Positions 1 through 54,367 of a DNA stretch of 64,000 bases are shown in pieces; position 1 is the stretch's first letter, and every line of letters begins with the position of its first letter. Source of the stretch: Candidatus Dojkabacteria bacterium (GTDB lineage Bacteria; Patescibacteriota; Dojkabacteria; JAHIVN01); NCBI GenBank assembly GCA_016932045.1, contig JAFGDO010000023.1, forward strand, positions 42,337 to 106,336, read 5' to 3'. The notes beneath the pieces were generated by a model. The model saw only the letters and a program-made list of their open reading frames with translations, ran no database searches and was not told the origin of the DNA. The translations under genes and the position numbers were made by a program.

Positions 1-2
1 CG

Positions 3-125
3 GGTCTTGCCGAAGAGGCAGGTCTTGCTTATAAGAATGTAGATCAGGTTTGCGAGTCAGTTGATCTTGCTGGTATTTCAAAAAGAGTTGCAAAATTCTT
101 ACCAATCGGGAATATAAAGGGATAG
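3..125 (+). CDS. 3' end (about 40 aa) of an upstream gene running off the window start; product unknown
   Basis: Frame 3 is open from the window edge to TAG at 123-125; translation GLAEEAGLAYKNVDQVCESVDLAGISKRVAKFLPIGNIKG has coding-like composition. Confidence 0.3.
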   Translation, partial: GLAEEAGLAYKNVDQVCESVDLAGISKRVAKFLPIGNIKG

Positions 126-323
126 CCAAACAGCTTAACAGAAAAACAGTAAACAGATAAACAGCGAGCAGTAAATAGTGAATTTTTGCATTGCTTCATT
201 GTTACATTGTTAATTTTTAATTCTTCATTCACAATTGAATCTTCGTATAATTGGGTAATTGTTATATTGCTATATGGTTGGACTACAGAGAAAGAATGAC
301 CTCTAAATTTATTACATTTCTCG

Positions 324-1682
324 ATGATAATTAAAAGCTTTAGTGAGGCAATTGAATATTTAGATCAACTGAAACCAAAGAAATTTTATAAAAAATTCTC
401 AGGGGAATTAGGGCTCGAGAGATGTAAGTACCTTCTGGAATTATTGGGCAGTCCACAGAATAAGCTAAAAGTTATTCATATAGCAGGAACATCGGGTAAA
501 GGTTCTACTGCCTATTTAATTAGTATCTTATTGAAGGCTCATGGATTTAAAGTCGGGCTGCATATTTCCCCGCACCTTTTTGATATAAGAGAAAGATTCC
601 AGATTAATAACAATATAATCTCCAAGAGCGATTTTATAAAATATTTAAATAGTTTAATTAAATATATCCAGAAAGTTGAGAATTCTAAATTTGGCAAGCC
701 AACTTACTTTGAAGTTCTTGTAGTATTGGCGTTTTACATATTTATGAAGGAGCAAGTTGACTATGCAGTAGTTGAAACTGGGATTGGAGGACTTCTTGAT
801 AATACTAACTGTGTTGATAGAGAGGATAAAATCTCTGTCATTACAAGAATCGGATTGGATCACACGAAGGTTCTAGGGAAAACTTATGAAGATATCGCTT
901 TCCAGAAGGCTGGGATAATAAATAAGAAAAGTAATGCTATTGTTCTTGAAGACAAATTAACTTCAGATACTATTGAGAAATCTGCAAAAAAAATTAGTGC
1001 ACATTTATTTTGGATAAACAGAGGAGATAACTTTAATAAAGTTCGAGTAAGTACGAAATTGACCCGCTTCAATTTCTCCTTTAGAGGATTTGTCATGAGA
1101 GACATCTCTTTAAGCTTGTTAGGAGAATTTCAAGCTGAAAATTGCAGCATGGCACTAGCAACTGTTAAGCTACTTAGTGCAAGAGATAGATTCAAAATGA
1201 AAGAGGATAAAGTAAGAGAATGCTTAGGGAAGGCCCGATTTCCAGGAAGACTCGAAATATTTAAACTAGAAGGAAGGACTGTCATATTGGATGGGGCTCA
1301 TAATAAACAAAAGATGAGTTGTTTGTTAAATAGCCTTCAGAAGATTTTTCCGAGGCAAAAGTTTGATTCTATACTTGCATATAAAAGTAGTCCACAATAC
1401 TTAGATTATCTAACCTTGATTGCTCCTATTGCAGGAAGTATTTATTTTACAAATCCATTTGTGGTAAACCGGACGAAAGAACAGCTTGATGTGATCGAAA
1501 AAAAGTTAGAAAATAAGCTAATGAATTTAGGAGTCTCAAATTATAAGATAACCCACAATCTAAAAGAGGCACTTGAAGATATGTTGAATAGGGGAAAGCA
1601 TATTTTAGTCATCACAGGTTCTTTGTTTCTTGTAGATATATTTTACTCAATAAAAGCTAGCTATGATAAAGATTACAAATAA
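324..1682 (+). CDS. folC: Mur-ligase family folylpolyglutamate synthase / dihydrofolate synthase (FolC-like)
   Basis: P-loop GTSGKGST near the N-terminus; Mur-ligase central and C-terminal architecture; 452 aa. Confidence 0.75.
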   Translation: MIIKSFSEAIEYLDQLKPKKFYKKFSGELGLERCKYLLELLGSPQNKLKVIHIAGTSGKGSTAYLISILLKAHGFKVGLHISPHLFDIRERFQINNNIISKSDFIKYLNSLIKYIQKVENSKFGKPTYFEVLVVLAFYIFMKEQVDYAVVETGIGGLLDNTNCVDREDKISVITRIGLDHTKVLGKTYEDIAFQKAGIINKKSNAIVLEDKLTSDTIEKSAKKISAHLFWINRGDNFNKVRVSTKLTRFNFSFRGFVMRDISLSLLGEFQAENCSMALATVKLLSARDRFKMKEDKVRECLGKARFPGRLEIFKLEGRTVILDGAHNKQKMSCLLNSLQKIFPRQKFDSILAYKSSPQYLDYLTLIAPIAGSIYFTNPFVVNRTKEQLDVIEKKLENKLMNLGVSNYKITHNLKEALEDMLNRGKHILVITGSLFLVDIFYSIKASYDKDYK

Positions 1683-53117: not shown

Positions 53118-53728
53118 ACTAACCAATCAATAAGCCGGATTCTGTTCCTTCGACAAGCTCAGGACAAGTCCCTTGCAAGTCTTGGGTGATAACCATTTCT
53201 CTATGCAAAAATTATCTCCATGAATTACGTAAATTCGAGGAAATAATCTACATTTCTATTATCCTTAGGTAGACTTAGGACAAGTCCTTCGACTACGCTC
53301 AGGATCTTCGAATGCGGTGAATTTTTCCACCTTGCTGCAGACAGGGGTTACCTAGCACCCTTCAATTACTCTCAGGGCCGGTGGGCTCTTACCCCGTGAG
53401 AACATGACAAGTCATGTTCCTACCTTTTCACCCTTACCCTTCTACACTTCGACTACGCTCAGTGCTCAGGGCGGTTTGTTTCTGTGGCCCGACCTCGCTA
53501 AAGCTACGTTGGGCAAGCCCAATAAGCTTTAACAAAATCCTCAGTTCAGTTCTCAAAGAACTAAATCTAGAGTTTTATCCCAGAGATCGCTCCCTGCCAG
53601 CTCTCGCTGGTGTCACTTTCTGTCTCAGAGCGAGTCCTTCGACAGGCTCAGGACAGGCAGTCCGGACTTTCCTCCACGTAAAATCACGTTTTGCGTGATC
53701 ACGTGGTAGTTATCTAGATTGGTTAGCA
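53118..53728 (-). ncRNA. rnpB: RNase P RNA (bacterial type, unusually long, about 610 nt)
   Basis: On the minus strand, in canonical order: P4 5' strand GGAGGAAAGTCCGGACT; ACAGAAACAAACCGCC (P8/P9 block); AGGGTAAGGGTGAAAAGG ... GGTAAGAGCCCACCGG (P10-12 block); CAGCAAGG; P4 3' strand ACAGAATCCGGCTTA. The 10-bp terminal helix CTAACCAATC / GATTGGTTAG is P1. The locus is GC-rich and has no credible ORF. Confidence 0.8.
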
Positions 53729-53733
53729 GTTTA

Positions 53734-53739
53734 ATTATA
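53734..53739 (-). promoter_or_regulatory. -10 element (TATAAT) positioned about 8 nt upstream of the rnpB 5' end
   Basis: Minus-strand TATAAT, with a weak -35-like TAGAAA 17-18 nt further upstream. Confidence 0.3.
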
Positions 53740-53779
53740 TCATATTAAATAGGCTGTTTTCTACGAAAGCGAAGAGAGT

Positions 53780-54046
53780 TTACATATAGGAAGTAACAAG
53801 TTGATTAAACAACTGTGCTGCTGATGGCCATTCACCGGTGTTAGAGTAAGTGTCCATAGCGATTTTTGCTGCAGCAATATCATGTTCATTAGCATTGGTT
53901 CTTGAAACTACCTGTTGGTAGATTTCCGGAAGTTCAGTATCAGGACTCTTGGATTGTACCAATGCATCGGCTAGTTGTTCTGCAACTACAAGTCCATTTT
54001 GTGCAGCTGCCATTACTGTTGTTATTTCTACGGCTTCTTGTTCCAT
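53780..54046 (-). CDS. small acidic hypothetical protein (start at MEQEAV)
   Basis: 88 aa, Ala/Gln-rich helical sequence, no recognisable motif; track ORF extends to 54085. Confidence 0.4.
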   Translation of the reverse strand: MEQEAVEITTVMAAAQNGLVVAEQLADALVQSKSPDTELPEIYQQVVSRTNANEHDIAAAKIAMDTYSNTGEWPSAAQLFNQLVTSYM

Positions 54047-54367
54047 TGTATTACCTGTAATTACATCTAAACTTATACAGCACAAAGATTATATCACCGG
54101 TATATAGTATCTTCAAGTCAAATTTGTTATTATCTACCTTATATTATTAGTTGACAATAGCAGCAAGACCCCTACGTTGTGGACTTAATTAGAACATTTA
54201 AAAATAGTTACATATCCTATAACGCATAAATTATTTAAAAGTTACAATTAAAATATGCTGTTTTACAAATACCTGGTACTCTTGTAAAATCAAATAAGGC
54301 TAAGGGTTAAAAGCGAGAATTGAACCTTCTGCTTTATCCTTTACTTTATACTTTTTACCTTTAGTTC

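Follow-up and report, generated by a model that had tools for sequence, protein, structure and literature searches.

Bacterial RNase P RNAs usually measure 330-450 nucleotides (nt) and are among the best-studied ribozymes. The subject of this report is a 64-kb stretch of DNA of a Candidatus Dojkabacteria bacterium (contig JAFGDO010000023.1; the whole stretch is called the window below), a member of the Candidate Phyla Radiation (CPR), whose minus strand carries rnpB, the gene of a bacterial class-A RNase P RNA, with a length of 608 nt from P1 to P1 (53726..53119) and four copies of a short repeat inside it. An initial annotation made from the sequence alone had placed the universal rnpB blocks in canonical order on the minus strand and described a 10-bp P1 helix enclosing about 610 nt. 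Both statements are borne out by the covariance-model alignment described below, by the positions of the two P4 strands, and by P1 itself, which is a perfect 10-bp helix of CTAACCAATC and GATTGGTTAG at 53119-53128 and 53717-53726 (on the RNA strand CUAACCAAUC, 53726-53717, and GAUUGGUUAG, 53128-53119).

With permissive filters, the 367 positions of Rfam model RF00010 aligned from first to last (1-367) over 53713-53115 with 61.3 bits (E=5.6e-18). This is under the Rfam gathering threshold of 100 bits, and at gathering thresholds zero families were reported for the whole 64-kb window, rnpB included. The extra sequence forms insertions of 144, 15, 33, 107, and 26 nt that are all internal to core helices and, as the initial annotation had proposed, expand both the specificity domain (S-domain) and the catalytic domain (C-domain). 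The excess over the model amounts to ~240 nt located at peripheral sites, and the low score is explained by these internal insertions together with the missing P16 and P17. Since the model spans the whole ~600 nt end to end, the RNA is not a shorter core flanked by a separate element, which had been named at the outset as the result that would speak against an oversized RNA. By Rfam, this sub-threshold rnpB is the sole known RNA in the window, which is without tRNA, rRNA, or riboswitch.

The universal blocks GAGGAAAGUCCGG, ACAGAAA, GGGUGAAAAGG, GUAAGAG, AGCAAGG, AGAGAAAUGG, and ACAGAAUCCGGCUUA are intact and in canonical order, and the catalytic core (P1-P5, P7-P15, P18, and J18/2) is canonical. 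P12, P13, and P14 are all kept, and a class-A specificity domain is confirmed by P13 and by P14 with its GNRA-type L14. The core and its transcription signals comprise the following features:

53674-53662, minus strand: 5' strand of P4, block GAGGAAAGUCCGG (universal catalytic core)
53145-53131, minus strand: 3' strand of P4, block ACAGAAUCCGGCUUA
53357-53378, minus strand: P14 with a GUAA loop and a tandem G·A (CCCUGAGA/UUGAAGGG) where relatives have Watson-Crick pairs
53734..53763, minus strand: promoter-like site of sigma-70 type, TAGAAA, an 18-nt spacer, and a TG-extended TATAAT
53114-53086, minus strand: hairpin of terminator type whose 13-bp inverted repeat is perfect and encloses a 3-nt loop, with A and U runs on its flanks

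In a gap-free comparison of P14 across 10 sequences, 96.7% of positions were paired, compensatory changes were seen at 7 of 9 pairs, and 0 of 500 shuffles attained the score, a clear sign of structural selection on the core. The promoter-like site has 10 of 12 consensus matches plus the TG, the last base of its -10 element is 53734, 7 nt upstream of where P1 starts, and the terminator-type hairpin begins 5 nt past P1. From these flanking signals, the RNA looks like its own transcription unit of about 610-640 nt, and the locus is probably a functional class-A RNase P RNA gene, with activity predicted from the sequence. Upstream on the same strand, a 101-amino acid (aa) open reading frame (ORF; 53780-54085, minus strand) without NCBIfam match stops 17 nt before the promoter-like site; its counterpart in relatives has 142, 378, or 403+458 aa or is absent.

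P15 is a simple 6-bp hairpin (GGUGGA-AAAA-UUCACC, 53316-53331, minus strand) that lacks the internal loop and the GGU motif, which pairs with the 3'-CCA of tRNA, and the P16/P17/P6 pseudoknot is also missing. In an earlier survey by Lui, Nielsen and Arkin (2021, PMC8172020), CPR class-A RNase P RNAs are described as scoring below Rfam thresholds, needing manual refolding, and carrying large helix extensions, often without P16/P17 and the L15 UGG motif. This picture also holds for the window RNA, and its P15 matches the loss reported there for two-thirds of CPR RNase P RNAs (PMC8172020). The divergence of CPR RNase P RNAs is thus previously known, large helix extensions included.

Lineage-wide expansion and the repeat copies

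We compared the window RNA with seven further complete rnpB genes and two partial ones at contig ends (the 5' end in L039, the 3' end in L040; L-numbers denote loci or contigs fetched for comparison), drawn from the contigs of gltX relatives and from contigs matching a lineage-specific rnpB block. The product of the gltX gene next to rnpB in the window is identical to a protein listed by NCBI under Candidatus Dojkabacteria. The gene order Zn-peptidase / rnpB / gltX is conserved in most relatives; among gltX-relative contigs without rnpB, L031, L033, and L034 end before the gene, and in L032 the synteny is lost. A metagenome scan with the lineage-specific P8-P10 block gave 5 loci only. Window included, P1-to-P1 lengths are 406, 408, 470, 471, 498, 508, 605, and 608 nt, and two other CPR RNAs, from Saccharibacteria and Kaiserbacteria, have Rfam match spans of 351 and 381 nt. 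With relatives at 406-605 nt, the whole lineage is expanded and the window RNA stands at the long end of a continuum; the impression of an isolated oddity does not survive, given that L025, in which other sites are expanded than in the window, attains 605 nt. In L025 (3262-2658, minus strand) and L026 (3712-3215, minus strand), the stretch from P1 to P4 has 114-116 nt versus 54 nt in the window and includes additional hairpins as well as a P3 whose internal loops are symmetric (CGAAG/CGAAG). ORFs overlie rnpB on the opposite strand both in the window (94 aa, 53414-53698, plus strand) and in L040 (a called 155-aa gene, 2-469, plus strand), and both are probably spurious.

When the RNAs were cut at conserved anchors, the expanded sites proved common across the lineage (P5-P7, P9-P10/11, P12, the P13 5' strand, P15-P18, and the P19 site), with content and length that are species-specific. 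This comparison supports the initial suggestion of lineage-specific helical insertions, one of which, a 59-nt element, is specific to the window. The insertions in the window RNA are as follows:

53615-53656, minus strand: P5-P7 insertion (the P5.1 position of class-B RNAs), holding repeat copy A
53492-53572, minus strand: two inserted hairpins of 34 and 47 nt between P9 and P10/P11
53432-53474, minus strand: P12, with tandem G·A in its basal stem and repeat copy B at its tip
53399-53420, minus strand: hairpin GGAACAUGA-CUUG-UCAUGUUCU within the P13 5' strand, part of the 33-nt insertion
53254-53312, minus strand: 59-nt window-specific element between P15 and P18, with repeat copy C and a degenerate fifth copy
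53203-53253, minus strand: extended hairpin at the P18 position, 51 nt versus about 26 nt in relatives
53146-53187, minus strand: P19-site insertion (P2 3' to P4 3'), a composite hairpin with a GGGA-CUUG-UCC tip and repeat copy D as its 3' arm

A hairpin stands at the P5-P7 site in all Dojkabacteria RNAs and in the two other CPR RNAs, and those inserted between P9 and P10/P11 are partly common to L025, L027, L037, and L039. The 26-nt insertion of the RF00010 alignment falls at the P19 site. The chief private excess of the window is its 59-nt P15-P18 element, which stands where relatives carry a 13-16-nt hairpin, together with the doubled P18. Its closest relative, L040, has neither of these nor the repeat unit at the window's sites, and the absence of the P15-P18 insertion from L040 suggests that it is a recent gain. 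Hairpins with a CUUG tetraloop stand at four places of the window RNA (53171-53162, 53287-53278, 53411-53402, and 53520-53511, minus strand; GGACUUGUCC twice, UGACUUGUCA, and GGGCUUGCCC); two of these adjoin repeat copies, and GGACUUGUCC is also found in rnpB of L025 and L039.

The repeat itself, searched as CTTCGA-N3-8-CTCAG, has 4 copies in the 64 kb, all of them within rnpB (53148, 53287, 53447, and 53637), versus 0.13 expected, and 0 of 100 shuffles reached 4. On the RNA strand it reads (N)CCUGAGC-N3-4-UCGAAGG(N), a small self-complementary unit of the form UCCU-GAGC-YUG or GUAG-UCGA-AGGA:

53654-53634, minus strand: copy A, GUCCUGAGCCUGUCGAAGGAC, after P5
53465-53444, minus strand: copy B, GCACUGAGCGUAGUCGAAGUGU, tip of P12
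53305-53284, minus strand: copy C, AUCCUGAGCGUAGUCGAAGGAC, between P15 and P18
53165-53145, minus strand: copy D, GUCCUGAGCUUGUCGAAGGAA, adjoining the P4 3' strand
53281-53261, minus strand: degenerate fifth copy, GUCCUAAGUCUACCUAAGGAU, 71% match, joined to copy C by CUUG

The four copies noted in the initial annotation are thus real, although the spacer given there as constant has, with the motif divided as in that annotation, 2 nt in A and D and 3 nt in B and C. Of the two copies said to lie directly beside the P4 strands, D adjoins the 3' strand, while A is separated from the 5' strand by P5. All copies are 19-22 nt long, in direct orientation, and dispersed at spacings of 116-373 nt, with one copy alone in P12. 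Copies A and D are 95% identical and both have UGUC immediately 5' of CUGAG, and B and C are 100% identical over 16 nt, which would fit recent duplication; copy B has the flanks CACU/AGUG versus UCCU/AGGA in the others.

Three hairpins of near-identical sequence occupy different rnpB sites in different Dojkabacteria species. A ~36-nt composite of CUUG hairpin and repeat, UUCAGGUAA(A/G)GG(A)CUUGUCCUGA(G/A)C(U/C)UGUCGAAGGA, forms P3 in L029, whereas L039 and the window have it at the P19 site; CCUGAACCCAACGUGGUUCAGG comes after P5 in L039 versus a position between P9 and P11 in L025; and AUCCCGCUCUGCGGGAA lies at the P19 site in L026 versus between P15 and P18 in L040. At both sites of the latter, ACAGAA occurs within one nucleotide 3' of the hairpin, which hints at intragenic recombination via short repeats. 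A CUGAG...CGAAG hairpin directly after P5 is found in Saccharibacteria (L003), in Kaiserbacteria (L022), and among Dojkabacteria in the window and L026. A scan of a genome collection for P4 plus the unit gave 23 matches, of which 2 were real CPR rnpB genes and 21 chance matches in unrelated genes. A 42-nt stretch of Treponema sp. UBA2869 (L021, 2677-2718; GGAAAGTCCGG...TCCTGAGCCTGTCGAAGG) that mimics the P4 block with the unit was rejected, as it lies inside an ABC-transporter ATPase gene; the unit sequence can accordingly also occur in coding DNA.

The unit can fold into a hairpin of a 4-5-bp stem, a U-A pair, tandem G·A/A·G, a G-C pair, and a 5-6-nt loop, that is, eight stem positions of which two are G·A/A·G. 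Across 11 copies from 7 genomes, 92% of positions are paired with 3 compensatory pairs, 0 of 500 shuffles match the covariation score, and pairing drops to 32-61% in shifted registers; the positions of CU-GA-G...C-GA-AG are invariant or nearly so (the one exception being L039) and the outer stem covaries. This signal stems from the structurally unambiguous copies. In the window, only copy B is essentially unambiguous, with the forced unit hairpin within 0.3 kcal/mol of the minimum free energy. Copies A, C, and D are predicted to prefer, by 7-10 kcal/mol over every fold in which the unit stays a separate hairpin, a longer imperfect hairpin that takes in the unit as one arm, and these extended folds use the unit in three different registers. 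At the P19-type composite of the window, L039, and L029, the 5' arm varies (GACUUGC versus CAGGU) and is still complementary to the unit, and a G-to-A change in L039 removes the closing G-C of the small hairpin and makes the long helix perfect, so that the comparison of the three favors the extended fold for this hairpin. By these folding predictions, the four copies are one sequence with more than one structural use.

By sequence, CU-GA...GA-AG is compatible with tandem sheared G·A pairs, and further tandem G·A motifs (CCCUGA/GAAGGG) occur in P14 and at the base of P12. This recalls the kink-turns (K-turns) in P12 of archaeal RNase P RNAs, which are reported to be bound by L7Ae (PMC4245976, PMC5499556), the window P12 having two stacked tandem G·A motifs. 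We rejected a K-turn reading of the unit, which has no 3-nt bulge next to a canonical stem and in which the G-C follows the G·A directly, the P12 bulge being at most 1 nt; a hammerhead-like reading was likewise rejected on the sequence alone, CUGANGA not being present. We know of no L7Ae-type partner here.

The repeat unit beyond rnpB

Dojkabacteria DNA totaling 166 kb contains 8 copies of the strict core that have a paired stem, all in rnpB, and a genome-wide miniature inverted-repeat transposable element in Dojkabacteria was rejected on present data for this confinement. Outside the lineage, UCCUGAGC-N2-4-UCGAAGGA was found at at least 120 loci of a viral-contig collection (L042-L161), a raw number that is near chance for a 16-base pattern. 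The spacer spectrum is non-random, with CUG 42, UUG 27, GAAG 11, and GUAG 4 times among 127 matches, and CUG, UUG, and GUAG are the same variants as in the window copies; among 85 matches of a control palindrome with the same information content, the spectrum was flat. Within the same loci, 39 more GAGC-YUG/GNAG-UCGA cores have other complementary stems versus ~1.6 expected by our own estimate. The widespread hairpin, of sequence form GUCCUGAGCUUGUCGAAGGAC, thus combines a conserved loop (GAGC-YUG/GNAG-UCGA) with a covarying stem, on host contigs of 32-73% GC. A second module, CCUGAACC...GGUUCAGG, was rejected as a widespread family, its loop spectrum being flat.

Per replicon of an annotated plasmid collection, the hairpin has 20-25 sites in Comamonas and 5-12 in Sphingobium, and hardly any annotated feature underlies the copies among the matches listed. 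Multiple intergenic copies, often in inverted pairs, are seen in replicons of Comamonas, Sphingobium, Novosphingobium, Moraxella, and Methylobacterium. In a 40-kb stretch of Comamonas endophytica plasmid NZ_CP106882.1 (L162, 141776-181808), 6 of 6 copies are intergenic and form inverted pairs inside CCGTTCG...CGAACGG units. The Comamonas arrangement is the behavior of extragenic palindromes of the repetitive extragenic palindrome / bacterial interspersed mosaic element (REP/BIME) type. Elsewhere, L106 carries a tandem array on the minus strand (about 1879-1925; at least 3 units of GGTCCCTGAGCTTGTCGAAGGGC with a 23-nt period) and another copy at 2723, 800 nt off. In L064 (3991, plus strand, and 4087, minus strand), L068, and L115, the unit caps hairpin stems of 15-29 bp that are perfect in L064 (23 and 26 bp of perfect extension); stem sequences differ by copy, and the tip CCGUUCG-UCCUGAGCYUGUCGAAGGA-UGAACGG is kept.

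Zero Rfam families matched native copies of the widespread hairpin. The element was not found in isolated phage genomes, so that the viral-contig matches are probably bacterial or prophage DNA, and no asymmetry between G·U and A·C in the stems of the widespread family was found, which gives no evidence of the widespread element acting as RNA in one sense. On these sequence comparisons, we consider it fairly likely that the unit belongs to a widespread family of REP-like palindromic hairpins dispersed between genes in many bacteria, and the initial suggestion of an invading repeat element gains support from this match.

The closest format among described elements is that of the CGTC-tagged REPs, which have a CGTC/TGTC/CCTC tag, an 8-9-bp stem with A-T first pairs, a 4-5-nt loop, and a CCA tail, form inverted dimers, and occur in several phyla without a dedicated transposase (Di Nocera et al. 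2013, PMC3733652). Their superfamily includes the Rickettsia palindromic elements (RPEs) RPE-4 and RPE-6 and is tolerated inside functional genes of reduced genomes (PMC3733652). The widespread relatives of the unit resemble them in an eight-position stem, a five-nt loop CYUGU, and an intergenic arrangement as inverted dimers, and may also have a short C/T-G/C-T-C tag (the 5' flank has the consensus C-T-C-R, with TGTC and CGTC variants), and the rnpB unit has the REP format of stem and short loop with its eight stem positions and 5-6-nt loop. By our own back-translation, the CGTC-2 peptide RHSELVSGS (PMC3733652 supplement) yields nearly the 5' arm and loop of the unit, with Watson-Crick pairs where the unit has its tandem G·A, in keeping with the paired stems of CGTC elements. 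In rnpB, unlike CGTC-tagged REPs, the copies are direct and dispersed rather than inverted dimers, and unlike for RPEs, the host is an RNA gene rather than a protein-coding gene. The likeness to CGTC-tagged REPs is one of resemblance, not membership.

Origin and meaning of the expansion

On balance, we favor the explanation that the insertions are lineage-specific expansion segments seeded by a REP-like palindrome that spread within rnpB by duplication. The palindrome would have entered rnpB long ago, an early date being suggested by the copy that sits after P5 in three CPR classes, and duplication or recombination over short homologies would then have added and relocated copies inside rnpB, with copies kept where an extra hairpin leaves the core undisturbed. 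One copy would cap P12 as a tandem-G·A hairpin, and the others most likely serve as arms of longer imperfect hairpins. The copies are probably tolerated or mildly stabilizing peripheral struts without a part in catalysis, and mild stabilization would serve an RNA that has lost P6, P16, and P17.

Several observations weigh against this explanation. With zero copies outside rnpB in the 166 kb, dispersed intergenic copies of the REP type were not found in Dojkabacteria, and this confinement leaves no direct sign of a genome-wide mobile element, past or present, in visible DNA that amounts to only ~6% of a genome with an assumed size of ~1 Mb. The match to the widespread family could reflect convergence on an intrinsically favorable hairpin. 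With ambiguous folds for A, C, and D, the four copies may not be structurally equivalent. Finally, neither the sequence of the unit nor its peptides appear in the text or supplements of PMC3733652, and CGTC membership is not confirmed.

The chief rival, to which we give a real yet clearly smaller chance, regards the unit as an endogenous functional module of RNase P, such as a tertiary contact or protein site, whose likeness to intergenic repeats is convergence on a very stable fold, and which could take the place of the absent P6/P16/P17 in the way that P5.1-P15.1 acts in class-B RNAs. The hairpin after P5 shared by L003, L022, the window, and L026 suggests an old conserved position, and the near-invariance of CU-GA-G...C-GA-AG with a covarying outer stem, the additional tandem G·A motifs, and the lack of the unit from other DNA of the lineage all agree with such a module. 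Against it, the non-equivalent sites (P3, P12, the P19 site, after P5, and P15-P18) are hard to square with a single contact, three of four window copies have a more stable longer hairpin in three registers, and the L039 substitution breaks the small hairpin and perfects the extended fold. The closest relative moreover does without the unit at the window's sites, and the identical loop variants CUG, UUG, and GUAG recur in intergenic repeats of unrelated bacteria. A further reading, which strikes us as improbable, would make the tandem-G·A hairpin GAGC-YUG-UCGA an unnamed functional module that a widespread factor recognizes or that copies itself into structured RNA genes, and that would have been recruited repeatedly into CPR RNase P RNA, where it would act as a strut that associates with itself or as a platform to which an extra subunit binds.

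Long near-perfect hairpins are also the architecture of rRNA intervening sequences, and in the window such hairpins (a P18 of 51 nt and, at 53492-53538, one of 47 nt) stand in place of short capped helices. After transcription, they might be cut out in the manner of 23S rRNA intervening sequences, by RNase III for instance and without religation, to leave a fragmented RNA of normal total size. We think this very unlikely given that insertion sizes vary continuously among relatives, many of them short, and a bacterial RNase P RNA that is fragmented in vivo has, to our knowledge, no precedent. Least credible of all is an assembly artifact or a decaying pseudogene, although the source is a metagenome-assembled genome and the Rfam score lies under the gathering threshold. 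The sequence recurs with 100% identity over 640 nt in a second assembly (Logan SRR13394437), albeit one that may derive from the same reads, and relatives from other samples have the same expansion sites and modules; the core blocks are intact and ordered, the core helices covary strongly, and the promoter-like site and terminator hairpin are in place.

Under the favored explanation of expansion segments seeded by a REP-like palindrome, a close parallel in RNase P itself comes from heterocyst-forming cyanobacteria, in which Vioque is said to have described, in 1997, short tandemly repeated repetitive (STRR) sequences within the P12 helix encoded by rnpB. STRRs are tandem heptamers that are confined to P12 within the RNA and abundant elsewhere in the same genome. 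Both cases have a genome repeat family lodged in a peripheral helix of the RNase P RNA gene; unlike STRRs, the Dojkabacteria units lie as dispersed palindromes of 19-22 nt in four or five places of rnpB, with none elsewhere in the 166 kb. Other RNase P classes likewise carry or tolerate extra helices at the P12 tip, the P5.1 position, P19, and the P15-P18 region. Like P5.1, P15.1, and P19 of class-B RNAs (see the helix table of PMC2858038) and the expansion segments of rRNA, the additions sit at tolerant positions (after P5, near P15, and from P2 to P4) around a conserved core, but here this core is of class A (P13 and P14), the added helices vary among close relatives, and they are partly one repeated sequence.

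In the literature searched, we found neither modular, repeat-built, and site-shuffling rnpB expansions nor a link of an rnpB repeat to a widespread REP-like hairpin, and searches for Patescibacteria RNase P, for palindromic elements in RNase P RNA, and for the unit sequence or its peptides gave nothing relevant. Internal repeats, a shared hairpin module, and hairpins that change sites are likewise not described in the available portion of PMC8172020. One practical consequence is that rnpB genes missed at default Rfam thresholds lead completeness checks and annotation of CPR genomes to under-report rnpB, and spurious ORF calls over the gene may hide it in annotations of Dojkabacteria genomes. 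For the biology of the enzyme, these RNAs present a ribozyme gene that grows by up to 50% through the gain, loss, and relocation of hairpins among close relatives while its core is untouched. If the unit were, against the odds, a functional module recruited repeatedly as a platform or strut, this bacterial RNase P would possess lineage-specific accessory modules, as do the archaeal and eukaryotic enzymes. If it is truly REP-derived, selfish or repeat DNA would have colonized a catalytic RNA in parallel to the Rickettsia palindromic elements in protein genes, which would suggest a concrete route for the origin of RNA expansion segments.

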